From the IMG/VR virus record IMGVR_UViG_3300010162_000393, positions 32,001 through 96,000 of that record: 64,000 nt of DNA. One strand, 5' to 3'. The notes beneath the pieces were generated by a model. That model ran no database searches and had not been told where the DNA came from. It worked only from the letters and a program-made list of their open reading frames with translations. The position numbers were made by a program, and so were the translations under genes. Below, piece after piece: positions 14,401 through 31,000 of this stretch. Each line of letters starts with the position of its first letter. The first letter of the stretch is position 1. Origin of the DNA: a virus (lineage: Duplodnaviria; Caudoviricetes).

Positions 14401-17400
14401 GAACAATTAACATCTTCTGGAACAGCGGGAACTTGGTCAATCGAAACAGGTACATTACCTGCCGGATTGACATTAAACGGAACAACCGGTGTAATTAGTG
14501 GAACACCTACCGAATTTGGTGATAGTTTCAAGTTCACGGTGAAAGTTACTAATCCTTGTGGTAGTGATACAATGGAGATTGATATGTTTGTTTGTGGAAA
14601 ACCAGAAGTTACAACTACCGAAATGGAATTTGTAATGGGGGAAGAGAAAACTGAACACTTAACATTCACAGGGACTACACCAGGAACATGGACAATCGAA
14701 GACGGTGATTTACCGGAAGGGTTGGAATTAGATGAAGAAACTGGTGAAATTAGCGGTACACCGACCGAATTTGGCGAATTTTCAATAAGTGTAAAGGTTG
14801 AAAACCATTGCGGTGACGATATAAAAGAAATTGATATAATAGTATGTGGAGAACCGGAAATTACAAGTAGTAATACTATGGAATTTACAATGGGTGAACC
14901 GGGTTCTGAACAATTAACACATACAGGAACAGAAGGTACATGGTCAATTGTTAGCGGAGAAAGCGATGGAAGTTTTGATGACGACTTTGATGATGACTTC
15001 GATATTGGAGAAGAAGCAAGTGAATTACCAGATGGATTATCATTAAATCCGGAAACCGGTGTTATCAGCGGAACCCCAACTGAATTTGGAAACTTTACAA
15101 TTACGGTTAAAGTTGAAAATGATTGCGGTGAAGATGAAATGGAGGTTGAAATAATAATATGTGGTAAACCGGGAATTATAAGTGACGAATTTGACATTGT
15201 AATGGGTGAACCAGAATCTATCTTATTATTACACGAAGGTAGTGCTCCCGGAACTTGGAATATAGAAGATGGTGATCTACCAGATGGTTTAACATTGAAC
15301 GAGGCAACTGGTGAGATTAGCGGAACAGCAAGTGAATTTGGGGTATTTTCATTCACGGTTAAAGTAGTTAATGCTTGTGGTAGTGATACAAAAGAAATAG
15401 AAATAACTGTTTGTGCGGAACCAGAAATTACAAGTGACGATACGACAGATTTTGTAATGGGAAAACCGGGTTCTAAACAATTAACATATTCAGGTACAGA
15501 AGGTATTTGGTCAATATCAAATGGTATATTACCAAATGGGTTGGCGTTGAATACCATAACAGGTTTAATTAGCGGCACACCTACCGAATTTGGTGATTTT
15601 TCAGTTACAGTAAGAATAGTAAATGATTGTAACGAAGATAGTCAAGTAATTAATATGTTTGTTTGTGGAGAACCAGAAATTACAAGCGACGATGAAATGT
15701 TTTTTGTAATGGATGAAGAAGGTTCTAAACAATTAACATATGTTGGTTCACCTGGTGTTTGGTCAATATCAAATGGTGATTTACCAGAAGGTTTAGATCT
15801 AAACGGAGAAACAGGTTTAATTAGCGGAACAGCGACTGAATTTGGTGAATTTATGTTCACTGTAAAAATAACAAACGACTGTGGGGAAGACGAAATGGAG
15901 ATCGAACTATTCGTTTGTGCAACAGATTCTGAAATAACAAGTGATAATGAGTATGAAATTGAAACCGGAAAAACTGTTTCAATACAATTAACTGCTTCTA
16001 AAACATTAGGTGAGTGGGTAATCGTAGATGGTGGATTACCTATTGGGCTGACATTAAATAAAGAAACCGGTTTGATTAGCGGAACAGCAACAGAATTTGG
16101 TGATTTCAAATTCACTGTAAAAATGGAAACAATTTGCGGTGAAGATGAAATGGAAATTGATATATTTGTTTGCGGTGCACCCGTTATTACAAGTGGTAAT
16201 AGTATGAGTTTCGTAATTGATGAACCCGGTTCTGAAACATTAACATACACAGGAACAGAAGGTACATGGTCAATATCAGTTGGTTCATTACCAAACGGTT
16301 TATCACTAAACACTACAACCGGAGTTGTTAGTGGAACGCCCACTGTATACGGTAACTTTATGTTTACGGTAAAAATAACAAATCCTTGTGGTGAGGCATC
16401 TAGAAATATTAATATGTTCATTTGCGGAACACCTGAAATAACAAGTGGTGATAACATGTTTTTCGTAATGGGCGAGTCCAGTTCAGAAACATTAACATTT
16501 GACGGTAGTAGACCTGGAACATGGGCAATAGAAGAAGGGATATTACCAGGTGGTTTATTGTTAAACGGAACAACTGGTGTGATTACTGGAACTCCGACAG
16601 AGTATGGAGATTATGTTTTCACGGTGAAAATTACAAACCCTTGTGGTTGGGCAACAAAACAAATTAATATGTTGGTGTGCACCGAACCAGAAATAACAAC
16701 AAGTATTAATGAATATGATGGTGTAAAAGGTAATCCTATTTCAATAGAATTAGAATCAATCGGAACAGACGGTGTTTGGTCAGTATCAGCGGGTAAATTA
16801 CCTACAGGATTATTGTTAGATGATGAAACCGGAATAATTAGCGGAACACCAACAGAATTTGGTGACTTCACATTTACAGTAAAAATTACTAACCCTTGTG
16901 GAGTAGATACATTAGAGATAGAATTATTTATTTGTGGTCCAGCGGAAATTATAACAGGTCAGTATTTCCATTTTATACAAGAAGAAGAGGTTGAAGAAAC
17001 ATTAGAGTTTGAAGGAACTCATCCCGGTGTTTGGACAGCAGAAGATTTACCAGAAGGATTAGTGTTGTCAGAAGAAGGTAAATTAAGTGGCTCCCCAACA
17101 GAATTTGGTGAATTTAGAACACAAATAACTGTTAACAATGATTGTGGTGGAGATACAAAAGAATTTTTATTTGAAATAGATGATATTCATCGAATTATAT
17201 TTGAAGTAAAAGATATAAGGACTGGTGATCATATACCTGATGCAACTGTTGTTTGCCCTGATTTAGAAATAGAAAACGTTGGTTATGGTTTTTATGTGAC
17301 AAAATTGGTTGACGGAACGTATGATTGGACAGTTTCAAAAGAAGGTTATTATACTGAAACAGGTACGGTTATTGTAGAAGGAGATGAAGCAGAAGATATT

Positions 17401-19827
17401 CATGTATTAGTCTTACTCCAACCTTTGACACACGAAATTAAATTCATAGTAACAGATGAAGACAGTGGTGAACCGATTATTGGCGCAACCATTGATGTTG
17501 TAAATTCAATAAGTGAACAAGTTGTGTCTTTAACTGATAACGGCGATGGAACATACACGGCGTTTATAGTAAATGGAGATTATGATTATGATGTTTCAAA
17601 AGAAAAATATATACCAAAAGATGGTAGATTCAACATTAATCGTGATGATAAAGTAATTGAAGTACAACTTAAACTTGCATGTGAAATACCTGTTATTACA
17701 AGTAGTAATGAGATATTTTCCCTAATAGGTGAAGAAATTTTCTTACAATTGGAACAAGATGGTACACCGGGTGTATGGACATTGGTTGAGGTAACAGGTT
17801 ATGGTGGTGATTTTAATAACGATTTTAGTAACGATTTCAGTATCGGTAAAAACACTGGTAAATTACCTATTGGGGTAACATTTGATTCTGAAAACGCTAT
17901 TATTGGCGGTATACCAAATGAGTTTGGTATCTTTACCGTTACTGTAAAGTTGGAAAACGACTGTGGTGAAGATGAAATGGAAATTGAAATCTTTGTCTGT
18001 GCTGAATCCGAGATAACAAGTACTAATGAAATTATTAACGAAGAAGAGACTCTTCATACAGTAACACTTCTTACAACTATAGAGCGACGCACAAGTCAAA
18101 TTTTCAACGGAAAGTTGTATATGCCACAAGAACAAGGTACCACCCTTGAAATTTTTGATTTGATAACTGAATCTAGTCGCACGGTAACACTTACAAATAT
18201 GGGGCGATACACAAGTCAAATTTTCAACGGAAAGTTGTATATGCCACGAGCACATCAGTTTCCTACCGGTATCGGCACCCTTGAAATTTTTGATTTGGTA
18301 ACTGAAGTTAATCGCACGGTAACGCTTCCTACAAATAATATGATGCGATACACAAGTCATATTTTCAATGGAAAGTTATATATGCCACAAAGTTGGGGTA
18401 CAACCCTTGAGATTTTTGATTTGATAGAAGAAACTACTCGGACGATAACACTTCCTACAAGTATGGAACGATACACAAGTCAAATTTTCAACGGAAAGTT
18501 ATATATGCCACAAAGTTTGGGTACAACCCTTGAGATCTTTGATTTGGTGACAGAAACTACTCGGACGGTAGCACTTCCTACAAATATGTGGCGAAACACA
18601 AGTCAAATTTTCAATGGAAAGTTATATATGCCACAAAATAACGGTACCACCCTTGAGATTTTTGATTTAACGACAGAAACCACACGCACGGTAACACTCC
18701 CTATAGAAGTGTCTCAGGCAAGTCAAATTTACAATGGAAAGTTATGTATGCCACGTTCTGGTGGTGGAACCACCCTTGTGATTTTTGATTTGATAGAAGA
18801 AACCACTAACATGGTAACACTTTCAACTACAAATACGTTCCTATTAACAAGTCAAATTTACAATGGAAAGTTATATATGCCACAAACCAATGGTACCACC
18901 CTTGTGATTTTTACCACCACAATTATAAAATCAAGTTTATTTGAAATAGAAACAAATAAATATGTTTCAATACAATTAACCGCTTCTGCAACTCCTGGAA
19001 CATGGGTAATTACAGAAGGTGTATTACCACTTGGTTTAGTGTTAAATAATAAAACTGGGTTGATAAGTGGTATTGCAACCGAATTTGGAGAGTTTACATT
19101 TACGGTTGAATTGGAAACACCTTGTAGTATTGATACAACGGAAATTAACATGTTTGTTTGCGGCGCACCTGTTATTACAAGCGGTAATAGTATGTATTTC
19201 GTAATGGGAGAAGGTGACTATAGTGAACAATTAGAATATGTTGGCACAGAAGGTGAATGGTCGGTTTCAACAGGAACATTACCTAGTGGTTTATATTTAA
19301 ATCCAATAACCGGTGTTGTAGATGGTACCCCGAATGTATATGGTAACTTTACTTTCACAATTAAAATTGAAAACCCTTGTGGAGAAGCAACTAAAAACAT
19401 TAGTATGTTCATTTGCGGAAAACCAACCGTTATAACTAATCAGTTAAATTTTGTTAGAGGTGAATTTGGTTCAGAAGAATTAATATTTGCTGGTAGTAGA
19501 CCTGGATATTGGTCAATATTTGGTGGTAGTTTTGACGATGAGGATTTTGATGAATCCTTTGAGACAGAAGACGCTGAATTACCATATGGTTTATCATTAG
19601 ATCCAAATACCGGTATTATTAGCGGAACACCGATTGAAATAGGAAACTATGCAATTCTTGTTAAAGTTGTTAATCCTTGTGGTGAAGCAACAAAAGAAAT
19701 TAATATATTAATATGCGATGAATTTGATATAACAAATGATAATCAATATGATATTATAAAAGGTGATCCTATTTTAATACAATTAACAACTACTTTTGGT
19801 AAAAAAGATGAACCAATAGCACATTAA
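2437..19827 (+). CDS. Giant virion fibre/stalk protein: tandem putative-Ig (He_PIG-like) repeats, carboxypeptidase-regulatory-like domains, inserted beta-propeller
   Basis: 5796 aa; about 84-aa repeat C-x-x-P-x-I...W-S-I-x-x-G-x-L-P-x-G-L-x-L...G-x-I-S-G-T-P-T-x-x-G-x-F...N-x-C-G; no signal peptide; late motif upstream. Confidence 0.8.
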   Translation: MASKFSVNRHATQKYSVYSRVVNDISPVVVASTAKSPNDIIFTITFYVTDFNDKKIPDASVSIVSHDFKIINHFDGSYKVIDVPNGKYEYVVEKTGFVAVEGVVTVSGSDLEVHVKLCEVPSKIVNGNLNFVMNEEMYQKFGYVGSTPGTWSVVKGELPNGITFDHDGILSGTPRAFGKFEVTVMVENSCGSVTKDLLIQVCAVPEITTVDFVLPHKQTVSEQLSFYGSEPATWSVEDGLLPKGLLLNGQTGVISGTTKDYGDFDVTFKVANACGEDVKELKITICAKPKITSNDDTKFTMGEEGSVQLTSYGNPGVWTLYSGNLPNGLTLSEDGILSGTPTTFGKFDFTVKVENACGEDRQFMKVWICGKPEVVSGDMSFVMGQPVSHQLQFSGSRPGTWSIVEGVLPKGLTLNAETGVISGTPKEFGESSFTVMVVNPCGEATKVVNASLCAKPTIMSCCSGCDTNFVKGQEASMQYEASGSAGTWSVLGGILPTGLTLDPNTGIISGTPTVGGYYEFTLKFTNPCGEVEKCMSLFVCAEPSIKGSGEISFAMGQPGSHELHFEGSRPGIWSVSEGVLPAGVSLNAELGVISGTPTEFGDFDFTLKVTNHCGESTKEMNISICGQPQITSAGNINILTGESVNIQLESNGTPGVWSAEYGLPEGLSLSADGLISGEPTESGNFNVLITLTNDCGEASRNFNIFVCAEPEILTGDFDVLQNTPMSKQLQFAGSRPGTWSIEEGSLPWELKMDSKGVVSGTPKKVGSFSVLLKVKNYCGEVTKPIVVTSKKTYKATFIVKMEDGTMVPDASVVVGGFIVTNNNNGTYESYLTDGAHGFTVTKEGYEVEEGVVEIDGEDVVVTIILCVFPEILNGDMSFVMGVAKVVQLESTGSAGEWSIQGDLPEGLTFNATTGVISGTPEEFGEFEITLIMTNPCGSVSKDIEIVICGAPEITSSDEIEFVKGEKSSYELEFFGTDPATWEVSEGSLPAGLTLDAATGEIKGTPTVFGDFVFTVKVTNECGFDEQEISMFICAEPEVTSSGTLSFVMTEEHSEQLTSSGTPGVWSIVTGNLPDGLSLNVATGVISGTATEFGDFTVVVRVVNECGEATKETVISVCGLPVVTSGDMEFVMNEPVSHQLTAEGTEGTWRLLSGKLPLGLTLDSETGIISGTPTEFGDFSIVLRFTNVCGVARKILNIFVCAKPQITSANNINFALSDEASFQLEYTGTPGTWSVVDGDLPEGVTLKPTTGVISGTPVEAGNYYVTLKIENACGDATKSVNIFVCAEPVIIVSNIEFLQNVYVSKQLDFTGSRPGKWEVVSGSFPAGITLATNGVVSGIPTEMGNFEVVVKVKNPCGEDTKEISLFSCAKPVIINDNNIAFVKGEESAVQIEAIGTEGTWSIVSGALPNGLSLDPSGEISGTPTEGGTFKVTVQLENPCGVTTKMMVINVCAKPIIVSGDLDFVQNTPVSHQLRFIGSRPGKWSISAGNLPAGLSLDPNTGIISGSTHEFGEYNLTISVENECGVANKDIIMSTCSKPGIVSGDMNFVINEEGSSLLENSGTAGTWSIISGSLPNGLELDEITGEISGTPTVSGIYTFTVKVVNSCGEATKVVNLYVCAKPVISTGDLSFVMGEAVSQKLQYTGTRPGEWSIEGELPNGLTFNAETETISGIPSEFGEFEVILIVKNPCGEASKTIEIVICAKPVITSDHADFVMGEESSVELEGNGTEGVWTVDSGVLPEGLSLSSDGILSGTPAVSGNHSFTVKFKNACGESIKTILIYICAKPTIVSGDLNIVMGTPMSQQLIFSGTRPGTWSIESGNLPTGITLSEDGVLSGTTTEFGDFDVVIRVENPCGIALKPITIDTCAKPTITNNSDLTFVMNEYSSDELTASGTAGVWSVIGGSVLPDGLELDEETGIISGTPTVSGTFNIVVKIENHCGEDIRSIAIQICAKPTITSGELDFEVGVHGSETLTFTGSRPGTWSIVEGALPAGLTLNGATGVISGTPTEFGEFFVEVKVENHCGEETKEIEIFVCSKPAVTSGSNMNFVMGEAGSAQLTSSGTEGEWEIFAGELPAGLELDEETGLIYGNPTVFGNFAFTVMVVNPCGSATQEINMFICGKPAVISGDMEFVMGEESEEQLMFSGSRPGTWSVVEGDLPEGLTLDAETGVISGTPTEFGDIVFTVKVENPCGEATKEITAVVCGKPVVTSGTNMTFVMNEHSSEQLTSSGTEGIWSIDDGELPMGLILDPETGVISGTPLVFGNFVFTVKVENPCGEATEEINMFICGKPAVLNSTHPNFVMGEENELQLLFSGSRPGTWSIEEGELPEGVTLDPETGIISGIPTEFGDFEFTVKVENPCGEATKDFEMFVCAKPEIISPDKYDSVFDEEILFQLENTGTEGIWEITEGELPLGLELDEEGLIVGTPRVFGHFKFKVMVVNPCGEDEMEIDMFICKLPEIVSEEFDFVLGEESSEELTFIGSRPGSWSVVEGDLPAGLVLDSVEGTISGTATEKGDFNITLKVINPCGEDTKEIKIFVCEEPEVTSGGYFEFVMGNEVELQLEHTGTDGEWSLVEGDYLPEGLELNSETGLISGIATEFGNFYFTVKLTNYCGEAYKVIQIFMCGLPEILTESMGFVMGEEDDHQIVATGSMPGTWSIIEGVLPNSFVLNTSTGIISGTLTEHGEFPITVKLVNSCGETTKEIIITVCQTPTITSENDLEFVMGERVTFQLTNDGTAGEWEIIDGELPEGLRLNPLTGVISGRAREFGNFTFTVKIDNHCGSDTQVIEMFMCGLPVILHGNMNFQINEPGSDTFIGDGTPGTWSIVGGGLLPTGLTLNPTTGEVSGTPTVAGHFELVVKLENDCGSIMRDVVIFVCAPPEIIGEIDDFYVMGSEISQEFQFSGSRPGEWSVVGGDLPEGVTFDPETGILSGIPTEHGEFIFTVKVENPCGEATKEINIFICLEPEIITGGLEFDFNEYGEFELEVIGSEGAWSIVDGDLPIGLSLNEETGVISGTPTENGVFPITVKFENDCGSDETEILIVICKEPEITTEEMTPSLNNPYSQNIEYTGTEPHTWAIVGGDLPLGLVLNEFTGEISGTPLEFGDFIITVKAENDCGEDEKSILISVCAAPTVITTGLEFVVGQEGSEVLESFGTPGTWSIEDGDLPEGLLLDPDTGEISGTPTDLDVFGEIKITVKVENDCGDDEKEITLFICREPEITTEDMYAFVDEEFSEFIVYEGSEPHSWEIVDGDLPDGLDLDPETGEISGTPTEFGDFIFTVKVENYCGEDEKEIHMFVCAPPEIEIEDDEYDAVMGEEFSMQLTAYGTGGEWSIEDGDLPEGLTLNSETGEISGTPTEFGVFTITFKIENNCGEQNVEVTIYVCGEPEISTGQYIHLVQLEEFELQLEFTGTQPGTWSAVNLPDGLVLSEDGLLSGIPTGHEDVTSQITVTNDCGTDTKSFFFDVDDVHRLIFEVKDIRTGDHIPDATVLCPGLDAVENVGSGFYITILNDGTYTWSVSKEGYYPKSGTVIVEGDEAEDIHVLVELQPLTHEIKFIVTDEDSGDPIIGATIDVVNKESGDTVSLTDNGDGTYTAFIINGEYDYDVSKEKYIPADGEFEIDHDDEVVEVQLKLACVVPTITSGDSMYFVMDEEGFELLEYTGTEGEWSIVEGDLPDGLDLDPETGEVSGTPTEYGNFIFTAKIINECGEDEIEIDLFVCAPETEIISDDEYEIVSGSPVSIQLTTSATLGTWEIVDGGLPAGLTLSETGLISGTATEIGEFWFTVKMEAPCCEDEMEIYMFVCGTPTITSSNNMYFVMGEEDDFQLTATGSEGLWSISTGSLPSGLTLDAGTGEISGTPTVYGNFTFTVKIVNPCGEATQNVNMSICGKPEITSANLGFVMDEVGARQLQYDGSRPGTWAIVDGDLPAGLALNASTGIIIGVPTEFGVFEVTVKVTNVCDEDTKEIIITVCASPEITNENTMEFTIGESGSEQLTSSGTAGTWSIETGTLPAGLTLNGTTGVISGTPTEFGDSFKFTVKVTNPCGSDTMEIDMFVCGKPEVTTTEMEFVMGEEKTEHLTFTGTTPGTWTIEDGDLPEGLELDEETGEISGTPTEFGEFSISVKVENHCGDDIKEIDIIVCGEPEITSSNTMEFTMGEPGSEQLTHTGTEGTWSIVSGESDGSFDDDFDDDFDIGEEASELPDGLSLNPETGVISGTPTEFGNFTITVKVENDCGEDEMEVEIIICGKPGIISDEFDIVMGEPESILLLHEGSAPGTWNIEDGDLPDGLTLNEATGEISGTASEFGVFSFTVKVVNACGSDTKEIEITVCAEPEITSDDTTDFVMGKPGSKQLTYSGTEGIWSISNGILPNGLALNTITGLISGTPTEFGDFSVTVRIVNDCNEDSQVINMFVCGEPEITSDDEMFFVMDEEGSKQLTYVGSPGVWSISNGDLPEGLDLNGETGLISGTATEFGEFMFTVKITNDCGEDEMEIELFVCATDSEITSDNEYEIETGKTVSIQLTASKTLGEWVIVDGGLPIGLTLNKETGLISGTATEFGDFKFTVKMETICGEDEMEIDIFVCGAPVITSGNSMSFVIDEPGSETLTYTGTEGTWSISVGSLPNGLSLNTTTGVVSGTPTVYGNFMFTVKITNPCGEASRNINMFICGTPEITSGDNMFFVMGESSSETLTFDGSRPGTWAIEEGILPGGLLLNGTTGVITGTPTEYGDYVFTVKITNPCGWATKQINMLVCTEPEITTSINEYDGVKGNPISIELESIGTDGVWSVSAGKLPTGLLLDDETGIISGTPTEFGDFTFTVKITNPCGVDTLEIELFICGPAEIITGQYFHFIQEEEVEETLEFEGTHPGVWTAEDLPEGLVLSEEGKLSGSPTEFGEFRTQITVNNDCGGDTKEFLFEIDDIHRIIFEVKDIRTGDHIPDATVVCPDLEIENVGYGFYVTKLVDGTYDWTVSKEGYYTETGTVIVEGDEAEDIHVLVLLQPLTHEIKFIVTDEDSGEPIIGATIDVVNSISEQVVSLTDNGDGTYTAFIVNGDYDYDVSKEKYIPKDGRFNINRDDKVIEVQLKLACEIPVITSSNEIFSLIGEEIFLQLEQDGTPGVWTLVEVTGYGGDFNNDFSNDFSIGKNTGKLPIGVTFDSENAIIGGIPNEFGIFTVTVKLENDCGEDEMEIEIFVCAESEITSTNEIINEEETLHTVTLLTTIERRTSQIFNGKLYMPQEQGTTLEIFDLITESSRTVTLTNMGRYTSQIFNGKLYMPRAHQFPTGIGTLEIFDLVTEVNRTVTLPTNNMMRYTSHIFNGKLYMPQSWGTTLEIFDLIEETTRTITLPTSMERYTSQIFNGKLYMPQSLGTTLEIFDLVTETTRTVALPTNMWRNTSQIFNGKLYMPQNNGTTLEIFDLTTETTRTVTLPIEVSQASQIYNGKLCMPRSGGGTTLVIFDLIEETTNMVTLSTTNTFLLTSQIYNGKLYMPQTNGTTLVIFTTTIIKSSLFEIETNKYVSIQLTASATPGTWVITEGVLPLGLVLNNKTGLISGIATEFGEFTFTVELETPCSIDTTEINMFVCGAPVITSGNSMYFVMGEGDYSEQLEYVGTEGEWSVSTGTLPSGLYLNPITGVVDGTPNVYGNFTFTIKIENPCGEATKNISMFICGKPTVITNQLNFVRGEFGSEELIFAGSRPGYWSIFGGSFDDEDFDESFETEDAELPYGLSLDPNTGIISGTPIEIGNYAILVKVVNPCGEATKEINILICDEFDITNDNQYDIIKGDPILIQLTTTFGKKDEPIAH
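18050..18920 (+). repeat. Seven 120-141-nt tandem repeats encoding beta-propeller blades (TSQIFNGKLYMP...GTTLEIFDL)
   Basis: Repeat cores start at 18091, 18211, 18352, 18475, 18598, 18718 and 18847. Confidence 0.85.
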
Positions 19828-19830
19828 TAT

Positions 19831-19838
19831 CTATTTAT
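19831..19838 (+). promoter_or_regulatory. Putative late promoter CTATTTAT
   Basis: Lies in the 47-nt gap between the giant ORF and its continuation. Confidence 0.65.
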
Positions 19839-19874
19839 GAATAAAAGAAAAATAATATTTAAATATAAAAAATT

Positions 19875-22664
19875 ATGGATTCAAAATTAATAAACGAATG
19901 GACAATTATATACGGTAGATTACCAAATGGTTTGTTGTTGGATAAGGAAACCGGTGAAATAAGCGGTATCCCAACCGAAACAGGTAACTTCACATTTACT
20001 GTAAAGGTTGTAAATCTTTGTGGAGAAGAAACAATGGAGATAGAATTGTTTGTTTGCGCAATGCCTGAAATTACGACCGCACCATATTTTCATTTTATAC
20101 AATTAGAAGAAATTGAAGAAAAAATATTAGAGTTTGAAGGAACTCAACCAGGAGTATGGTCTGCTGTTAATTTGCCAGACGGGTTAATATTATCGGAAGA
20201 CGGAAAACTAACAGGAACACCAACCGGATATGGTGAAATAAAATCAGAAATAACTGTTACCAATGCCTGTGGAGCAGATACTGTAGAATTTCTTTTTGAT
20301 TTAGATGATGTTCATCAAATTATATTTGAAGTAAAAGATAAACGAACCGGTGAACATATACCTGACGCAACAGTTATTTGCCCTGATTTGGAAATAGAAA
20401 ATCATGATAATGGTTTTTATACAACAATACTGAATGACGGGGAGCATCCTTGGCATGTTTCAAAAGAAGGGTATTTTCCAGAAGAAGGGACCGTTGTAGT
20501 AGAAGGAGATGAGGGGGAAGATATTTATGTGTTGGTGGAACTTCAACCAACAACATATGAATTAAAGTTTATTGTTACATATGAAGATACAGGAAATCCG
20601 GTAACAGATGCTACTATTGGGGTTATAAATTCTGAAACTGAACAAATTATTTCTTTAACAAATAAAGGTGGTGGTGTGTACTCTACATTTGTTGAAAATG
20701 GTAAATATGATTGGGGCGTTTCAAAAGAAAGTTATATTCCAGTAGATGGTGACGTTACTATTAATTATGCGGACGAGGTAATTGAGGTTGCGCTTATCCA
20801 AACTACAAAAGAATTAATATTTAAGGTAATAAATAATGGTGGTAGTTTTAGTGAACTACATTTTGATAATTCTTTTGATGTTGGCGGAAGGTTAATTAAT
20901 GATGCGACGGTTGTTTCTGGTAATTCACTGATTGATTTAGATATAACAAACAACAATGACGGTACTTATAAAACAGAAGTGTTTTCTGGTACATATAACT
21001 ATGCAATATCAAAAGAGGGATTCATAACCGAAAAAGGTAGTGTAGTGGTGCAAAGTGAAAATGTTGAAGTTTCTGTCCCACTTTCTGAAATAGTTGGTAT
21101 TATAACAGTAAATGCGACTGTTGCCCTGAGTAATGCTACTTGTAGTGCAACAATATCAGCATCTCCTGTATTATCTGGTTATACATATGATTGGTCTTTA
21201 TGGAATATGGATACAGAAACTTTAATTTCACAATCTCTTAATCAAACAGGTACTACATGGAATATGGGAGCAATGAGTAGTGGAAATCAAAATGTACCTC
21301 TTGAAGTACGCTGTACTGTAAAAGAACCTGTTTCGTCCGGCACCGCTTCGTTTGTTTGTACCCCACTTCCTTTGTGGAGAGTAACACAATTAAACCCTAC
21401 TTTGACGGTAAATAGAGCAAATATAATAACAGGTGAAACATTTATTGCCACATGTACAAACACCGTCGGAATGTCGCCGTTTGAATATGTATTTGAGGTG
21501 ATTAACCGCAGTAACGGTGAAGTAATACACGGTCCAATAAATCAAGATGTGTTAAATATATTTGAATATACACCAGCGACATTAGGAAATTATGGTGTTC
21601 GTTGTAGAGTGAATGTAAAAAATATACCTGTTGAATTTTATGATCAAACAGATGGGTTAGCAACAAGACTCGCTACCGTTAGTGGTCAAACTGATAACAT
21701 TGCTAGGGTTGATGTATACGATCCTATTGTTGCGACAATATCAACACCAAAATTAGGTCTGATGGAAGATGAACCGTTTGTTGTAACATGTACTTGGTCT
21801 GGTGGTTTAAGTCCATTTAGTTTTATTTGGAGTATGTGGCGAAAAGATGGTAGTACTTATACACAAATTGGAGCAAATACCACTACTACATCTTTTCAAT
21901 ATGGTAATGGTACATCAGCTTTATTTCCTACTCAATTTGCAACGCTCTTTACAAGTGGTGAAGCGAGTGGAATTAAAGAGGTTGAATTTAGATGTAGAGT
22001 AGAGAGTACTTCAACTTTATTTAACCCTCGTTTATCATGTGATGTGGTTCCAATTGTTGTTCAAATAGAACGACCACCATTTCAGTTTGTTTCAATAACA
22101 TTGGAAGGTACTGAACCTGGAGATGGTGACGATGGGAAAAGTCCTAGTCATTTTTTTGGAACAACCATAAAGGCAACTATTAATTTTACTGGTGGTACAC
22201 TACCAATAACACGTTACCAAAGAAGATTATCAACCCTTACAAATACAAATGGAAATTTAATTGCACTTGGTGATATTACACCGCTATCACCAACATTTGA
22301 GTTTATATGGCCGGTGTCAAACGGATCAACAAGTGGTAATGTTGATCATGTTACCTTGTATTGTACAGTAAGAGATAATAAGAATAGAGAAATAAATGGT
22401 AGTATAATAATATATAATTATATGTTTGGTAAACTATCTGGTATTATCACTTACAATCAGAAAAAACCAACAGGTGATGAAACGCTACCATACGTTATAA
22501 CACCATATGGTGGTGTTGGAACAGTTTATTATAGTTGGAAAATATACGATAATGAAACCAATGAATTAGTTGCAACGATTCCATCAATTGGTACCCAAAC
22601 CGGTACAACTATTAATTATGCAATTCCCTCAAGTCTTGCTCATTATGATGCTTTGATAAAATAA
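19875..22664 (+). CDS. Fibre continuation protein: half Ig repeat, Ig, carboxypeptidase-regulatory-like and PKD-like domains
   Basis: Starts mid-repeat (EWTIIYGRLPNGL...NLCG); later GG-x-x-P-F/Y-x-Y-x-W...C-x-V PKD-like units. Confidence 0.75.
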   Translation: MDSKLINEWTIIYGRLPNGLLLDKETGEISGIPTETGNFTFTVKVVNLCGEETMEIELFVCAMPEITTAPYFHFIQLEEIEEKILEFEGTQPGVWSAVNLPDGLILSEDGKLTGTPTGYGEIKSEITVTNACGADTVEFLFDLDDVHQIIFEVKDKRTGEHIPDATVICPDLEIENHDNGFYTTILNDGEHPWHVSKEGYFPEEGTVVVEGDEGEDIYVLVELQPTTYELKFIVTYEDTGNPVTDATIGVINSETEQIISLTNKGGGVYSTFVENGKYDWGVSKESYIPVDGDVTINYADEVIEVALIQTTKELIFKVINNGGSFSELHFDNSFDVGGRLINDATVVSGNSLIDLDITNNNDGTYKTEVFSGTYNYAISKEGFITEKGSVVVQSENVEVSVPLSEIVGIITVNATVALSNATCSATISASPVLSGYTYDWSLWNMDTETLISQSLNQTGTTWNMGAMSSGNQNVPLEVRCTVKEPVSSGTASFVCTPLPLWRVTQLNPTLTVNRANIITGETFIATCTNTVGMSPFEYVFEVINRSNGEVIHGPINQDVLNIFEYTPATLGNYGVRCRVNVKNIPVEFYDQTDGLATRLATVSGQTDNIARVDVYDPIVATISTPKLGLMEDEPFVVTCTWSGGLSPFSFIWSMWRKDGSTYTQIGANTTTTSFQYGNGTSALFPTQFATLFTSGEASGIKEVEFRCRVESTSTLFNPRLSCDVVPIVVQIERPPFQFVSITLEGTEPGDGDDGKSPSHFFGTTIKATINFTGGTLPITRYQRRLSTLTNTNGNLIALGDITPLSPTFEFIWPVSNGSTSGNVDHVTLYCTVRDNKNREINGSIIIYNYMFGKLSGIITYNQKKPTGDETLPYVITPYGGVGTVYYSWKIYDNETNELVATIPSIGTQTGTTINYAIPSSLAHYDALIK

Positions 22665-22695
22665 TATAAAAATAATATAAAAAAATAATAATAAA

Positions 22696-25600
22696 ATGGC
22701 ACATTATCCATACAATGATTTACGTTTAGAATGTACAATAACCAATAGCGGAAATTCAAATGAATTTGTTGCAAAAGAGTGGGTTACACCAGCCGTACCG
22801 GTTGCAGCATGGGAGGGGACAAAAGAACCTATGTTAACTGGTTTAGCATTTCCCAAACCAACAAATTTGAGATATGCTAATATAACCAACCATGTCTATT
22901 CGCCAACAAGAAATACCGCATATTATTATAATAACCAAGTTATTCAATATTCAAGTGTATTAAGTCCAATTCGGTTAGTATATATATTGAAAATTACCGA
23001 TTTTATTATGACAAGTTGTACGGTTGGGTGTTTGCACCCAGACGGGGTAATATTTTTATGTAATAATAACACTAGTTCTTCAAGAGCAATATTAGTAAAG
23101 GAAATAAGTGAAGAACCATTTGCTGATTATGAAACAATACATAATTATCCGGGTGCTTTACCGGATACTAATGGTAATAGGAGACTTCATTTTGTTCATT
23201 ATTATGATAATAAATTCTATGCGCAAAATGGTGTAGTATATGATATGAATTATAACGAAATTGCTACCCATTTAGTTGATAACACAGCAAAAGTAGCACC
23301 CGTTAATCCAAAACTTCAACCAAATAGATGGTGGATTGGTACAGCTACTGCAAATGGTGGAACAAAATCGTGTTATATTTCAAATAATGATAGTGCGAAT
23401 AGTTATACAAATTCTTTATCTGTTTCCCATTTTTATCGTGATGTTGAAATTAATTCAACAACAACTGATCCAGCATCAATATCGTTTAATTGGAAAGGTG
23501 TTGGTGATACGACTTGGGGTTATTTACAGTTTCGTGTTATAGAAACTAGTGAAACGCCGGTACCAGGTACACTACCTTCAGGATCCTCTCTTGTTGGTAA
23601 TTTATTTAATAGTTCAGTGTGGATAAATAGAGTTGTTACTCTAGGTGAAATGTCTGGTGTAAAACGTATTGTGTTTACATGGCGTAATACCGCAAATACT
23701 ACTTACCAACCACCTGCTGCCGTAGATAACATTATTATTAAGACGAATGTTGGTCCAGATATTATTGAGGATTTTGAGAGCGGTGATGGTACAACACTTG
23801 ATAATTGGGTGTTTCCGGATCCTCTAGTTATATTACCACCAAATATATCATATTACGGTTTTAATACAGAAAGAGATATATTATATGGTTATAATGCTAA
23901 TCTATTGAATACAAATAATGGGGATGGAAAATTTCTTTGTAATATTCGTATTAATAATACCGGAAATTTAATTCTAGCTGTTTATGATGTTGTAAGTAAT
24001 AATGTTAAAGTGTTAAATAGCATAGTAACAAATAATATATCATATTTTGGTTATTATTTTGCGAATAATTGTGTTGTTGTATTAATGCATGATATTTTGG
24101 ACTCCCAAACACCAAGAATGGCAAAGGTTAAAATATATGATTTAATTTCCGATAATATAACGGAATTAGATATTAAACGATCAACCACTTTCACAACTTT
24201 TTATGTTAGACCAACATTTGATAAAAGATATGTAAACATTGCAACAAATCTTACTGTTGCTACTACACCACGCATATATGAAACATATTTTACATTTGTT
24301 GATACTATTGATAAGCGAATAATAACCAGAAACGGATCATATTCTTATAATAATAATTCTGGTAGTAACGATACTGCTCTTTCTTTTCATATGACTTATG
24401 CGTATGCTTTTATTGAATATGAAGGTGAATTTGTTGGTATCCATACAAAATTGAGTGATGGTAATGCGCTACATTCATTATGTGATGTTCCGGTAGTTCT
24501 TGGTGATAGAATATATTCATACGGACATACTTCAGCAAACCATCCTGTTTATTTTGTGGATAAAACGAATCAATTAACATTATTATCAACAAATGATAAT
24601 ACATATCAAGAACTTAATCCAACAACCACACCTGTATGGTTTTTACCTACTTCTAATCTTGTTTATTTACAATATAATAATAATATATATAAAATAGGTA
24701 TTTCTAATTTTTATGTTGGAACTAATAATTATAGCGTTTCGTTGGTTGTTTCGGTTTATGATGTTGCTTCTTATTCATGGAGTGTTGTTAATAAATTGAA
24801 TTTATCTAGTGGTAATAATAATAGTGATTTTAGAATTATTCGCGCATGTTTTGATGAAGATTATGTGTATTTATTAGTAAACTATGCAAATAGTACCGCA
24901 TTAAGAATAATTATATTTAATAAAATAACATACGAGTTAATATCAAATACTGATGCTCAACGTAATCAACCATTTTATATTAGTTTTAATAATACTCAAA
25001 CTGCTCTTTGGAATTTTAGTAGTAGATATGGAAATGGTAGTAGTAATTTGCGACCAACAATATCAACATCTAATATGTTTTATAACAATTTTTATCTTTT
25101 CTTTGACATTAGTTATACACCAGTCCCATTTATGATATATGATATGAAAACACGTATAATTCATCAAATGATGTGGGATGGTTGTAATAGTACAACCTCT
25201 GGACTATCTATACCAAGTAATACGGCTAGTAATTATACAATTACATTCGTTGAGTTGGATAATAATAAAATATTAGCTTCAGCGTTTTTTAATAATAATT
25301 TTAGTTTAATATTAGAACATGATTTATCTACAAGATCAACTATTTTGTTAAACCATTCAAACTGGAATGATAGTACTATGGGGCGTGAAAGAAAACTTGT
25401 ACTTGGTAATATTTATAGGGTTGCTGATCGTATATATATTAATACCACAGCAACCACAGGTGGTGTGGCATTTGATCTTGATTATAACCCTGTTTCTTTT
25501 AGTGGTATTACACCAACTCAAGATTATTCAGATTATTATCGTCTTAATTATAATAACATTACACCTCATTATTTTGTAAATTCAGATAACACAATAATAA

Positions 25601-28008
25601 AAGATAATGATGTTATAACTGTAACAAATATTGATTCCGGATATGTTTTAAGAACACATCTTTATGTGGATGGTATGTCATGTGTGTTATGTGGAAGAAC
25701 TAACGATAAACCAAGATTATATCTTTTAAATGAAGATTTTTCAGTTACATTTTTACGTGAATATAATGAAAGTAGTATTTCTCATACCAGTAATAATAAT
25801 ATTATTAATAGAAATGTTTGGAATATTGGAAAAAATGTTTTATATTCCGGTAGGATACCGAATACATTGCCTTTGAAAAGGATACCTTCAAACGTTTCCT
25901 CAATGAGTTATATCAACCCAATGAGAAATCATGATTCATTTTATCTTGTTTCATTCGCTAATGGTGGTATTATGAAACAAACTGGTCCAACAACATTTAC
26001 ATTAACTACTGCGCCTGTTGAATATACATATAGCGCATTTGGTATAAGCACAAATACAATACTTTTACGTGGAAGATATGCTGGTACTAGTAACGATTTG
26101 TGGTATAAATGGGATGAATTTAACACTCCTGCATGGGTTCAATGTGGTGGTACTAATCCATCTTCTCCAACACTTGTTACACAAAATACTTGTACTGATA
26201 GGATTTATATTATGAATAGTAGTCAAATATTTAAATATGATCGTAATACAAATACTATTAATTTATTTCAAACTTTGGGTGGTTTTATTGCTACTGATTT
26301 GTATATACAACATAAAGATCACAAAGAAGGTAGAATGTATTTTGTTAGAAATAATATACTATATAGAGAATCAGATGATTTATTATCAATAGTAGAAGTG
26401 TTAAGAAGCGAAACTAATATTGTTAATGTTATTATTTGTCCCGGAGATTTGTTGTATTATGCTAATACAAGGGATGTGTTTTCATTTAATGGAGTAACAC
26501 AAAATAGAATTGGTACAACAGGGTCAACGACTAATATTGTTGATATAGCAATTGATGGTGATGGAGTGATTTGGGGTATAACAGGTAGCACAACATTTAA
26601 TATTAAAAATGGTGTTATAAGTGAAAGTATTACAATGTGTAGATATATAACTGTATCAAGTCAAACTAATCAAAGAGAATTATCAGCGACTTATGGTGCA
26701 CTAACAAGACTTATAATTGAACCAGAACATAATAGAAGGTTTATGTTTAATACTAATTATCAATTTTATTGGTCTGATTTATACAATATTAATATAACAC
26801 GTACTCAACGAACTATTGATACCGGAAGGATAAGATTATTTTTATATAATAATTATATATTTAGTATTAGTGATACTGAAGTAGTGGTTTGGTTCGTAGA
26901 TGTCTACGGGAATCTCGTGTCTTCAGAATTTGATTGGCAAATGGGTAACGATAAAAGACATCTCGTTTGTTATAAACCGTTTGCGGTTGGTGCTGATACA
27001 CATATATGGGATAACCCTAACCCAAGTGGTGTAATTGAAAATATGCACACCAGTGATATAACTGATGTGATAACCGACCAGTATTCTGGTTGGATGCAAA
27101 TAGCTGGTAATTGGGAATCTTTTAATGCAATTGTACCTAGAAAGTCTAATGAATATTCATATAATAGTAGACCAAGATTTTGGGATCAAAATATTAAAAT
27201 TAATAATATGGAAGTTGCTAGCAGAGTTTCGATATGGACAGGAACTGAAAGTATATATTTACCACTTAATATTATTGCTGTAACAAATAAACTTGTTGGT
27301 TCAGGAAATGATTTAAGGATTTCATTGACTGTAAAGGGAAGTGGGTATATGTACCTTAGTTGGGGTGTAGATTCACCAATACAAGTAGAATTGACCGGTT
27401 CTGAACAAACATTCGATTATCAATACACAGCAAAAAATTTTCATACAATAACTATCTATGCAAATGATGTTACATACTTTAAATGTACTAAAGCTAAATT
27501 AATGCAGGTGGATATATCGAAAAATAAAACATTAACACGTATAGATGTTCAGGATAATTTATTATGGGAATATGAATTAAATCATATTATTGAACATCTA
27601 CCACCAGTAACAGGAGGAACAATTAAAATTTGTGATAATCCTGCTTCAGATACTTGTGATAGATTTAGTGTTATTGAAAAAGGATGGGATTTTGATGCAT
27701 ATCAGGATAATATTGATATCACAGAAGTCAATAATTCTATTGTAAATATTTATGATACACATGGTGATATAGATGATAATGAAAATAATGTTAAAACCAT
27801 TGAACAAGCAAGAGCAAGTGTTATGCGCATTCTTGCAACCACATATCCTGTGGATTTTAATGATGTGAAACCAACGTTAGAAGACATTGCGTTTGTTCCT
27901 GCCGGAGGTGGTGTAAACGGTTATTATGATTTTTATATGAAACTCAATAAGTGTGAGGGAGCAGAACAGATCGTAGGACCATTAAGATTAGATATTTGGG
28001 CAGTTTAA
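22696..28008 (+). CDS. Large beta-rich putative receptor-binding/virion surface protein with inserted adhesin-like domain and short C-terminal LRR
   Basis: 1770 aa, N/Y/T-rich, propeller-like segments; adhesin module 23323-23811; internalin-like VDISKNKTLTRIDVQDNLL near the C-terminus. Confidence 0.6.
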   Translation: MAHYPYNDLRLECTITNSGNSNEFVAKEWVTPAVPVAAWEGTKEPMLTGLAFPKPTNLRYANITNHVYSPTRNTAYYYNNQVIQYSSVLSPIRLVYILKITDFIMTSCTVGCLHPDGVIFLCNNNTSSSRAILVKEISEEPFADYETIHNYPGALPDTNGNRRLHFVHYYDNKFYAQNGVVYDMNYNEIATHLVDNTAKVAPVNPKLQPNRWWIGTATANGGTKSCYISNNDSANSYTNSLSVSHFYRDVEINSTTTDPASISFNWKGVGDTTWGYLQFRVIETSETPVPGTLPSGSSLVGNLFNSSVWINRVVTLGEMSGVKRIVFTWRNTANTTYQPPAAVDNIIIKTNVGPDIIEDFESGDGTTLDNWVFPDPLVILPPNISYYGFNTERDILYGYNANLLNTNNGDGKFLCNIRINNTGNLILAVYDVVSNNVKVLNSIVTNNISYFGYYFANNCVVVLMHDILDSQTPRMAKVKIYDLISDNITELDIKRSTTFTTFYVRPTFDKRYVNIATNLTVATTPRIYETYFTFVDTIDKRIITRNGSYSYNNNSGSNDTALSFHMTYAYAFIEYEGEFVGIHTKLSDGNALHSLCDVPVVLGDRIYSYGHTSANHPVYFVDKTNQLTLLSTNDNTYQELNPTTTPVWFLPTSNLVYLQYNNNIYKIGISNFYVGTNNYSVSLVVSVYDVASYSWSVVNKLNLSSGNNNSDFRIIRACFDEDYVYLLVNYANSTALRIIIFNKITYELISNTDAQRNQPFYISFNNTQTALWNFSSRYGNGSSNLRPTISTSNMFYNNFYLFFDISYTPVPFMIYDMKTRIIHQMMWDGCNSTTSGLSIPSNTASNYTITFVELDNNKILASAFFNNNFSLILEHDLSTRSTILLNHSNWNDSTMGRERKLVLGNIYRVADRIYINTTATTGGVAFDLDYNPVSFSGITPTQDYSDYYRLNYNNITPHYFVNSDNTIIKDNDVITVTNIDSGYVLRTHLYVDGMSCVLCGRTNDKPRLYLLNEDFSVTFLREYNESSISHTSNNNIINRNVWNIGKNVLYSGRIPNTLPLKRIPSNVSSMSYINPMRNHDSFYLVSFANGGIMKQTGPTTFTLTTAPVEYTYSAFGISTNTILLRGRYAGTSNDLWYKWDEFNTPAWVQCGGTNPSSPTLVTQNTCTDRIYIMNSSQIFKYDRNTNTINLFQTLGGFIATDLYIQHKDHKEGRMYFVRNNILYRESDDLLSIVEVLRSETNIVNVIICPGDLLYYANTRDVFSFNGVTQNRIGTTGSTTNIVDIAIDGDGVIWGITGSTTFNIKNGVISESITMCRYITVSSQTNQRELSATYGALTRLIIEPEHNRRFMFNTNYQFYWSDLYNINITRTQRTIDTGRIRLFLYNNYIFSISDTEVVVWFVDVYGNLVSSEFDWQMGNDKRHLVCYKPFAVGADTHIWDNPNPSGVIENMHTSDITDVITDQYSGWMQIAGNWESFNAIVPRKSNEYSYNSRPRFWDQNIKINNMEVASRVSIWTGTESIYLPLNIIAVTNKLVGSGNDLRISLTVKGSGYMYLSWGVDSPIQVELTGSEQTFDYQYTAKNFHTITIYANDVTYFKCTKAKLMQVDISKNKTLTRIDVQDNLLWEYELNHIIEHLPPVTGGTIKICDNPASDTCDRFSVIEKGWDFDAYQDNIDITEVNNSIVNIYDTHGDIDDNENNVKTIEQARASVMRILATTYPVDFNDVKPTLEDIAFVPAGGGVNGYYDFYMKLNKCEGAEQIVGPLRLDIWAV

Positions 28009-28041
28009 ATTTAAAAATAATACAATAAAAATATAATAAAA

Positions 28042-31000
28042 ATGATAAAACAGGATTTAATAGAATTTATTGAAACCAGAGTATTTCAAAATACAGATAA
28101 TACAATAAGAGCACAAGCTGTACAGGAAGCGTTATACGAAATTGTTAAAAATGTGTGTGGAAAAGCAAAATCACGCGAACCATACCTGATTACCAAAATC
28201 AATGAGTATATTTATCCAAATTTGACTTCTGATATTACAGATATTGTGTTGCAGGATATTCTTGTATTAATGGTTGATGAATTATGGTTTCATGAAGACT
28301 CAAAAAATGACCTTATAACATACATTCAAGAAAATGTTGTAGCAGAGATAACCGGTGATATTTTGAGCGTTGTGTTGGTTAAAATGGTTAACGATCTGTG
28401 GTATGATCCGGCAGAGTTTTGTTCTTGTGAAATACCGTTGGCAGCAGGAACCGTTGGGGATAATATTAGTTGGAAAATATGTTCTACATATAAAGCATTG
28501 TGTTTGGAAGGTGCCGGTGATATGTTAAATCTTGAACACGGACAATACGGGTGGGAGAGTTATAATAACGATATTAAAATAGTTGTTATTGATAATGGAA
28601 TTACTTCCATTGGAAATTCTGCCTTTTCGTTTAATACAAATCTAATTGATGTTGTTATTGGAAATTCTGTTAGAATAATAGGTGAGAAGGTTTTTCAAGG
28701 TTGTAATAAATTACCTTTAATAATTTTTCCGAATTCGGTTACTTCTCTTGGTCAATATATTTTTGATGGATGTAGTGAATTATCAATGATTGAAATGAGT
28801 GGTTCGATTAGATTTATTGGGGATTCTGCATTCCGTAATTGTATAAATTTAAGTGAAATAACCTTACCAAACTCAGTGACAACTATTGAATCATTTGCAT
28901 TCAAAGGTTGTATAAATTTAAGTGAAATAACCTTACCAAACTCAGTGACAACTATTGAAGACGGTGTTTTTGATGGTTGTAGCGGTTTGCTTGATGTTTA
29001 TATGGGATTTTCGACTACAAAAATTGGTGATTTTGCTTTTAATAATTGTATAAATTTAAGTAAAATTATAATACCGGATTTTGTAACCTATATTGGAACA
29101 TCATCTTTTCAAAATTGTGCTAATTTAATTGAAGTAATTATACCATTTTTAACGGAAGTAATAGGGGAATATGCCTTTATGGGTTGTGGTAAATTAACCA
29201 GATTAACTATTGGGGATTCGGTAACAACAATTGCTAATAATGCTTTCAGCGGTTGTGTAAATGTAGAAAGAATCGCAAATTATGCTATGGTACCACAAAT
29301 AATTAATATTAATGTGTTTGATGGTATAAATAAAAACACTTGTTTATTATTGGTTCCTGGGGAAGCATTTGATTTGTATAAAGAAACTGATGTTTGGAAA
29401 GATTTTATAAATATTGAAAAATTTGACGTTGAAGAAGAATTTTGTACATGTAATAACCCAATAGTAGAAAATATTCTTGGTTCACAATCCAATAAATGGT
29501 GGATTGGTACATCTACTGCAAATGGTGGAACAAAGTCATGTTATATTTCAGATAATAATAGTACAAATACTTATAATTCCACAACATCTATTTCACATTT
29601 TTATCGCGATGTTGAAATTAATTCAACAACAACAAATCAAGCAGTACTATCGTTTGATTGGAAGTGTGCCGGATGGTCATCTAGTAACGGTTACTTAAGT
29701 GTTCGTGTTATAGAGACTACTGAAACACCTATTCCCGGTGTGTTTCCTTCAGGGACATCAATTGTTGGTAATTTATGGAATAATCGGTCAACATGGTTAA
29801 ATAGGGTTGTTAATTTAGGTAATATGTCTGGTGTAAAACGTATTGTGTTTACATGGTATAATACTTCTGGTGTTGATAACCCACCTGCTGCCGTAGATAA
29901 CATTATTATTAAGACGAATGTTGGTCCAGATATTGTTGAGGATTTTGAGAGCGGTGATGGTACTACACTTGATAATTGGGTTATTAATGGGGAAACTGGA
30001 CCAAAATGGAAAATATGTCCAAATAATACTTTGTGTATCACTGGTAATGGTATTATACCCAATATACCAAATGGTACACTTTGGAAATCCACAAGTAATT
30101 CTGCTATTATTCAAAGAATTGTTATTGGAAAAAATATCACTTCTATTGCCGCTAATGCTTTTGAAAATCTTAAAAATGTAATGAGCGTAAGTATTGGAAA
30201 TTCTGTTACTGTTATCGGTAACTATGCTTTCAGTGGTTGTGATAATTTAAATGATGTGAATATTGGAAATTCTGTTATAAATATTAGTCAATATGCTTTT
30301 CAGAACTGTTTTAATTTACAGAGAATAATTATACCGAATTTGGTTATTACTATAGATAACTATGCTTTTAGTGGTTGTAGTAGTTTGATGAATGTAATTA
30401 TTGGTAACTCTGTTGCAAGTATTGGTAACTATGCTTTTAGTGGTTGTAGTAATTTACCAAGAGTAGTAATCCCTAATTCAGTAATAACTATTGGTAATTA
30501 TGCGTTTTCTAATTGTAGAAAATTAACAGAAATAACAATACCAGATTCTGTAACATCAATTGGTAGCAACACATTTTCTTATTGTACTAGTTTAACTAAT
30601 GCTATTATTGGAAATTCTGTAACATCAATTGGTAATTTGGTTTTTGAGGCATGTCGTGATTTAACAGAAATTACAATTGGAAGTTCTGTTAGTTCGATTG
30701 CATCAAACGCATTTTCAGGTGGTTCTAATTTAATATCTAATAGATGGCATGTTGGTACAGCAATAAATAATGGCGGTAATAAATCGTGTTACATTAGTAA
30801 TAATAATAAAGATAATACTACTTCAGGTATTTCATCTAGCGGAATGGTATATTTTTATCGAGACATTAATATTAATTCAACAGAACAAAATCGTGCAACA
30901 ATTTCATTTGATTGGATGTGCGTTGGACCAAATTGGGGTATAGATTTTGACGCATTGAGAGTGTATCTCGTAGATACCAATATAACCCCTGTGGCGAACA

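Follow-up and report, generated by a model that had tools for sequence, protein, structure and literature searches.

The 64,000-nucleotide stretch of viral DNA analysed here (hereafter the window) comprises bases 32001–96000 of a 136,864-base pair (bp) contig, the IMG/VR virus record IMGVR_UViG_3300010162_000393 (Duplodnaviria; Caudoviricetes). This contig belongs to a contractile-tailed phage and codes for a sheath of 1319 amino acids (aa), together with a DnaB-like helicase, a Dam methylase and a protease resembling FtsH. Positions 2437–34728 of the window are occupied by four genes in the same direction, which harbor the two elements considered here: four short, acidic, Phe-periodic peptides, termed plugs below, which interrupt domains of a giant fibre protein (P0001) and of its neighbor (P0002), and a set of three helical hairpins that opens a leucine-rich repeat (LRR) protein of the BspA type (P0004) (Table 1). 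P0001 is made up of ~60 He_PIG immunoglobulin (Ig) repeats, which were recovered as self-similar units with a profile of the protein against itself, along with spacers of the CarboxypepD_reg-like type and seven propeller-like repeats in one block; its precomputed Pfam matches are PF05345 and PF13620. P0002 is a comparable chain of He_PIG Ig repeats (PF05345, E 4.9e-11) and CarboxypepD_reg-like domains. P0004 matches its LRR family with 1228 bits over 14 stretches, multiple units of which score above the gathering score, whereas P0003 is matched by no Pfam family.

Table 1. Positions of the four genes, the four loop peptides and the triple hairpin in the window
Feature	Window position (strand)	Length or protein position	Description
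P0001	2437..19827 (+)	5796 aa	Giant fibre protein, proposed scaffold
P0002	19875..22664 (+)	929 aa	Carries plug 4
P0003	22696..28008 (+)	1770 aa	
P0004	28042..34728 (+)	2228 aa	BspA-type LRR protein, proposed docked adhesin; PF13306 LRR_5
Plug 1	14965..15009 (+)	P0001 aa 4177-4191	Class A (Phe spacing 4,4); loop insert in He_PIG repeat
Plug 2	17803..17847 (+)	P0001 aa 5123-5137	Class A; loop insert in He_PIG repeat
Plug 3	19522..19566 (+)	P0001 aa 5696-5710	Class B (spacing 5,4; SF-x4-F-D-E-SF-E); last complete He_PIG repeat
Plug 4	20838..20885 (+)	P0002 aa 322-337	Class B; first loop of third CarboxypepD_reg-like domain
Triple helical-hairpin domain	28042..28416 (+)	Start of P0004	Proposed single-chain socket; repeats 28048-28155, 28186-28281, 28318-28395

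Phe-periodic loop peptides and a triple hairpin in one fibre locus

The four peptides had been pointed out in an initial annotation of the window, and translation of the DNA at the positions given there reproduces them exactly. The placement of the first three in one shared loop of the Ig repeat is likewise confirmed by our analysis: only three of the ~60 He_PIG repeats of P0001 are interrupted, all of them at position ~38 of the self-profile, and an alignment of the repeats (alignment A3) agrees, displaying clean inserts of 15–20 residues between the W-S/T-x-x-G strand and LPxG. Plug 4 follows strand 1 of its CarboxypepD_reg-like domain and precedes the G-x-[PL]-[IV]-x-D-A-T-[IV] strand. The same kind of peptide is hence found in the loops of two different folds, and all four copies retain their Gly flanks and aromatic period across both domain types. 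As a single set, the form in which they were originally presented, the peptides are all real but fall into two classes, with plugs 1 and 2 showing a canonical-like spacing, and plugs 3 and 4 sharing the signature SF-x4-F-D-x-SF. Plug 2 closely resembles the canonical C-terminal tail of other phages (G-DFNNDF-x-NDF-SI), with one core residue being different. A strict Phe-periodic pattern picks up only plugs 1 and 2 in real open reading frames (ORFs) of the 136,864-bp contig and looser patterns add plug 3; no further convincing site was recovered in its six frames with either kind of pattern. The AlphaFold2 model of the He_PIG repeat bearing plug 3 is a β-sandwich with a predicted local distance difference test score (pLDDT) of 86, in which the insert is devoid of secondary structure and is modelled with lower confidence than the rest of the domain, features as expected of an exposed flexible loop.

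The three tandem helical repeats that had been noticed at the start of the BspA protein were recovered with a profile built from 71 canonical N-terminal modules of other phages. When run against all ORFs of the 137-kb contig, this profile matches P0004 only (E 3e-9), with three domains at aa 3–38, 49–80 and 93–118. The first hairpin begins at residues 1–3 of the protein and shows the N, I-T and L-Q positions of the module, and N17, I22 and L31 are invariant across the repeats (alignment A1). These profile and alignment matches indicate that the three BspA repeats are homologous to the canonical hairpin module. AlphaFold2 predicts six helices arranged as three hairpins for aa 1–125 of P0004 (pLDDT 78, predicted template-modelling score 0.74). 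The 129-aa triple module has no tblastn match in cultured phages, no match in IMG/VR and nothing significant in Pfam or the PHROGs, and the module is without an annotated PHROG, a PDB sequence match by profile or a Foldseek match at E <=0.001. A wide structural search with the triple-hairpin model recovered only generic helical bundles (best Z 8.3), and a feature search of the ESM Atlas with the triple module gave only scores of 0.80 or less.

Peptides that are short and compositionally biased could match one another by chance, without biological meaning, and some matches to the DNA pattern used in the database searches described below do fall in Asn-rich low-complexity ORFs (L010, L032 and L192-L196). 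However, within the contig the motifs are limited to this fibre protein, they form clean indels relative to ~57 sister repeats, and the hairpin profile detects P0004 at the E value given above. The self-profile, the module profile and alignment A3 already contradict such an explanation, to which we attach almost no credence.

Aromatic tails and hairpin modules across Bacteroidota phages

The initial annotation had further stated that, in Bacteroidota phages, a structural gene with GDFNNDFNNDF at its end often has as its downstream neighbor a gene starting with an N-x3-I-T-x3-L-Q module. This rule proves to hold in both directions and across unrelated families of carriers. A degenerate DNA pattern for DFNNDFNNDF was found in more than 119 IMG/VR contigs among the matches listed, and in ~110 of the at least 119 contigs listed the motif is preceded by Gly and lies 0–12 residues from the C-terminus of the ORF. 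The downstream gene begins 1–17 nucleotides (nt) after the gene with the tail, and in 92 of 110 loci among the matches listed it opens, as judged by pattern, with the hairpin module, a stretch of ~35 residues (NGNxEITGxxLQ) with the consensus L-x3-I-x3-I-x-T-N-G-N-x-E-I-T-G-x2-L-Q-x2-L. In the reverse direction, a DNA pattern for NGNNEITG was used to choose loci and yielded 54 new ones with an upstream ORF; this ORF ends in an aromatic-periodic tail in 48 of them by a strict pattern and in 52 by eye.

The tail is carried by 15 families that are mutually unrelated by BLAST, whose members belong to the tail or baseplate (P2 gpI-like, J-like, baseplate wedge, phrog_35885 and others), and the same ten tail residues are encoded by 56 DNA versions, implying that selection acts on the peptide. 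The hairpin, in turn, heads 30 unrelated protein bodies, such as those with GDSL esterase, CotH, metallophosphatase and CBM5/12 domains, a diversity typical of receptor-binding proteins. The hosts of the cultured phages in which the pair occurs are Parabacteroides, Bacteroides, Alistipes, Croceibacter and Elizabethkingia, all members of the Bacteroidota, and these phages show a gene order of tape measure, ~830-aa protein, ~290-aa carrier with the DF tail and hairpin-headed protein. Copies of the DF motif internal to real-looking ORFs were seen only in L025 and L043 among the database loci, and none of ~11,400 ORFs of these loci holds both plug and hairpin in a single chain.

A different architecture is seen in the Bacteroides phages B124-14 and BF503P2 and in the Parabacteroides phage PD691P6, where the ~290-aa carrier domain forms the N-terminus of one 1839–2006-aa fibre, and neither the DF tail nor the hairpin is present anywhere in the locus. 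That both are missing from these fusions suggests that they are dispensable together once the link is covalent. Such joint loss is what a non-covalent linker pair predicts, and is not predicted by a binding site for a third party or by the edge of a cassette. This bears directly on an alternative for the window, namely that the loops are metal-binding, adhesive or tolerated inserts acquired through recombination with DF-tail DNA, with the pairing in other phages marking the edges of swappable cassettes. Loops rich in Asp and Asn can bind calcium, as a general matter, and the nearest giant homologues of the fibre lack the inserts, both of which are in keeping with this alternative. Nevertheless, a peptide under protein-level selection in 15 unrelated carriers, lost in step with the hairpin in a manner not predicted by the cassette-edge model, and kept with its flanks and period in four independent inserts in two domain types, renders it rather improbable in our estimate.

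Additional support for a functional pair comes from proteins related to the tandem module, only two of which were recovered in an exhaustive search of 1.8 billion representative proteins: P0005, with three hairpins, and P0006, with two. The gene for P0005 lies directly after that for a 412-aa fibre-like protein ending in an SF-x4-F-D-E-SF-E tail, while that for P0006 lies directly after the gene for a homologous 413-aa protein ending in SF-x4-Y-D-E-SF-E and directly before that for a 327-aa LRR_5 protein; a third homologue of this carrier has a C-terminal SF-x4-F-D-G-SF-E tail. The tails preceding both tandem-hairpin relatives thus carry the signature of plugs 3 and 4 of the window (SF-x4-[FY]-D-x-SF). 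The start of P0004 aligns with that of P0005, and its repeats 1, 2 and 3 are each closest to the repeat of the same number in P0005. These positional orthologues indicate that the triplication is old and that each position has been kept separately, as would fit an asymmetric socket for an asymmetric peptide. The context of these relatives and the joint loss of tail and hairpin in the fusions argue for a joint function of the two elements. On the contig of P0005, the triple-hairpin gene is followed by one for another small protein (82 aa; locus L123, 3928-4176), which has a single hairpin, so that one DF tail is followed here by two hairpin-bearing genes. A Kelch-like protein is encoded near the fibre genes on the contig of the P0006 phage.

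Candidate docking of the BspA protein on the giant fibre

Taken together, these observations lead us to rate as slightly better than even the prospect that each of the four peptides is a copy of a docking plug, with the N-terminus of the BspA protein as the matching socket. On the sequence evidence, the adhesin P0004 is probably mounted on the giant fibre. The docking interpretation offered in the initial annotation has gained from the pairing rule, the homology of the repeats, the joint loss and the context of the tandem relatives; beyond these, we infer direct binding of plug and socket, its stoichiometry, the pseudo-trimeric geometry of the triple hairpin and the presence of the proteins in the virion. 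The BspA protein may use all four loops, of which only the third and fourth have the signature found with tandem modules. A complex prediction for P0004 aa 1–125 with the He_PIG domain bearing plug 3, run without controls, returned a score of 0.00, which counts neither for nor against binding.

The mechanism that we propose would begin with an arrangement common to many Bacteroidota phages, in which the tail-tip or baseplate protein encoded ahead of the receptor-binding protein ends in a flexible G-(D-F/Y-N-N)x3 tail and the receptor-binding protein opens with a single hairpin of ~35 residues; the hairpins of the presumably trimeric fibre would form a six-helix bundle gripping the three aromatics of one such tail. 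In the termite-gut jumbo phage to which the window belongs, the plug would have been copied into exposed loops of the giant Ig-repeat fibre, and the hairpin triplicated within one chain, allowing a monomeric LRR solenoid to dock without trimerising. P0004 would dock on the class-B loops 3 and 4, which lie either side of the junction between P0001 and P0002 and are the likeliest sites for the BspA protein given that they carry the signature accompanying tandem hairpins elsewhere. The class-A plugs 1 and 2 might accommodate P0004 as well, or else another fibre whose gene lies outside the scanned part of the genome, such that up to four cargo proteins could be held by one scaffold chain. More tentatively, and as an idea that we consider possible though short of probable, a portable attachment standard of Bacteroidota phages, in which a bundle of three hairpins captures a peptide with three aromatics, would have been made scaffoldin-like here, with two possibly orthogonal plug types on one giant stalk and a single-chain triple socket mounting a monomeric 2228-aa LRR adhesin side by side with, possibly, other fibres.

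The genomic setting is relevant to which partners could be available. The 136,864-bp contig is a fragment, being without terminal overlap and ending in a 30-nt tandem repeat, and other termite-gut assemblies contain the same phage on contigs of 180,245 bp and 268,981 bp, where ribonucleotide reductase, ClpB, DnaJ and sigma factors are encoded in the flanks; it is accordingly a jumbo phage. Short walks past both contig ends met non-structural genes only, and the scans for plugs and hairpins covered ~150 kb (the 137 kb of the contig and ~12 kb of flanks) of a genome of at least 269 kb.

Several points weigh against docking of the BspA protein on the fibre. All four plugs are inserts in internal loops, rather than the last residues of a tail or baseplate protein. 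No DF loops were found in the nearest giant homologue, P0011 (31% identity), or in the four other giant He_PIG proteins scanned, which indicates that the inserts are lineage-specific and leaves their function without backing from conservation. While the pair is defined by hairpin genes that start within ~20 nt of the stop codon of a plug-bearing gene, the BspA gene adjoins that for P0003, across a gap of 33 nt; P0003 contains no plug and has no DF tail at its C-terminus, and the nearest plug lies 7 kb upstream. Among the paired loci themselves, J-like carriers with the tail are followed by a gene lacking the hairpin module, and a single ~45-kb siphophage lineage is the source of most of these loci, with the consequence that raw counts overstate their independence. 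Finally, beyond the ~150 kb scanned, a further ~120 kb of the genome may encode other partners.

Some of these points favor a second alternative, under which the pair is real in other phages, but the loops of the window recruit another partner, such as a canonical single-hairpin fibre with its gene beyond the scanned part of the genome, or hold neighbouring fibre chains together, with the triple hairpin of the BspA protein docking elsewhere, for example on a baseplate protein. Loops 1 and 2 indeed have the canonical 4,4 signature that is paired with single hairpins in other phages, the BspA gene and the plug-bearing gene are not adjacent, and the contig represents only a part of the genome. 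On the other hand, loops 3 and 4 have the signature of the tails found ahead of the only two tandem-hairpin relatives, and neither another module nor another DF tail was detected in the 137 kb of the contig or in the ~12 kb of flanks. On the whole, we view this alternative as unlikely, though as a stronger contender than an origin of the loops in metal binding or recombination, and retain docking of P0004 on the giant fibre as the preferred reading.

The structure of the locus itself is robust: the identical four-gene arrangement is present, at 99.99% identity, in four independent termite-gut assemblies, and is therefore no assembly artefact. At both the P0001/P0002 (window 19710-20060) and the P0002/P0003 (22600-22760) junction, a domain is divided between two proteins. 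The first 69 residues of P0002 (profile positions 32–91) supply the rest of the Ig repeat that opens at the end of P0001, and the start of P0003 likewise finishes the last repeat of P0002, A-H-Y being present on either side of this second junction. At both junctions the downstream ORF has its own ATG, preceded by an A/T-rich spacer, and since the junctions are the same in all four assemblies the splits are real. The block of seven tandem repeats of ~42 residues each (Y-T-S-Q-I-F-N-G-K-L-Y-M-P-Q ... T-L-E-I-F-D-L), which breaks the Ig chain of P0001 at window 18025-18909, looks like a β-propeller. The BspA gene (window 28042-34728) is called as 2159 aa in two ENA assemblies, versus 2228 aa here and in a Joint Genome Institute (JGI) assembly, a difference suggesting that the number of LRRs varies among members of the population. 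P0003 and P0004 share a domain of ~160 residues (W-W-I-G-T ... D-N-I-I-I-K-T-N ... E-D-F-E), present once in the former (window 23323-23808) and twice in the latter (29491-29979 and 30739-31251). This domain is matched by no Pfam family and may be a shared binding or jelly-roll module. The sheath protein, encoded downstream on the opposite strand (window 35017-38976, - strand), is unusually long, and its likeness to known sheaths is confined to the last ~300–600 residues, with a best match of 26% identity.

Comparison with known attachment systems and implications

Anchoring of phage fibres and tailspikes by their N-termini on adaptor or baseplate proteins is well known from T7 gp17, the branched gp66/gp63.1 complex of G7C, the TSP1-4 complex of CBA120 and the adaptors of K1-5. 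As in these systems, receptor-binding bodies of great diversity share a conserved N-terminal element, the gene lies directly after that for a tail-tip or baseplate protein, and several binding proteins per virion are possible. In contrast to them, the socket is a helical hairpin of ~35 residues and its presumed ligand a linear peptide of 10–13 residues instead of a folded interface, and the version in the window has repeated, internal plugs and a single-chain triple socket. Thus, fibre anchoring via conserved N-terminal elements is a known principle, while its re-engineering in this window is unusual.

The initial annotation had likened the locus to a cellulosome. As a functional analogue of the cohesin-dockerin system the comparison is apt: in each, a long scaffold of many domains offers several sites at which modular cargo would dock. 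It does not extend to membership of that family, with which there is no homology. The plug is a loop peptide, as opposed to the calcium-binding duplicated F-hand domain of dockerin, and the socket is helical, as opposed to the β-sandwich of cohesin; neither cohesin (PF00963) nor dockerin (PF00404) is among the Pfam matches of P0002-P0004 or in the precomputed list for P0001. For the capture of a peptide by the socket, a geometric analogy is provided by gp41-5 (PDB: 3O3X), a single-chain trimer-of-hairpins six-helix bundle lacking one helix, the vacant groove of which takes up a peptide. The AlphaFold2 model of P0004 aa 1–135 similarly has six helices from three hairpins and matches 3o3x_A with a Z of 6.8, although values of 5–8 are generic for helical bundles and imply no relationship. 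The MAT fibres of Bdellovibrio, in work attributed to Caulton and colleagues in 2024, reportedly also bear one short conserved N-terminal handle on many binding bodies, as do other fibre families, although the handle sequence in the phages is different; we know of no partner peptide described for the Bdellovibrio handle. A text search of 8.4 million papers and preprints by motif and by phage name recovered no description of the motif pair.

If the binding is true, one tiny, sequence-defined interface would explain how host-recognition proteins are mounted on very different tails across the phages of the phylum, being common to siphophage tips, P2-like baseplates and the giant fibre described here. 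Fibre exchange would then become predictable for phages infecting Bacteroides and Parabacteroides in the gut and for those of marine Flavobacteriia, the gene after a DF tail would offer a handle for the annotation of receptor-binding genes in viromes, and the peptide could serve as a tag for the display of proteins on such phages. To this picture the window adds that the plug functions, or is at any rate retained, in loops of two unrelated folds into which it has been transplanted, and that a trimer-type socket can become single-chain, a case of natural protein engineering.

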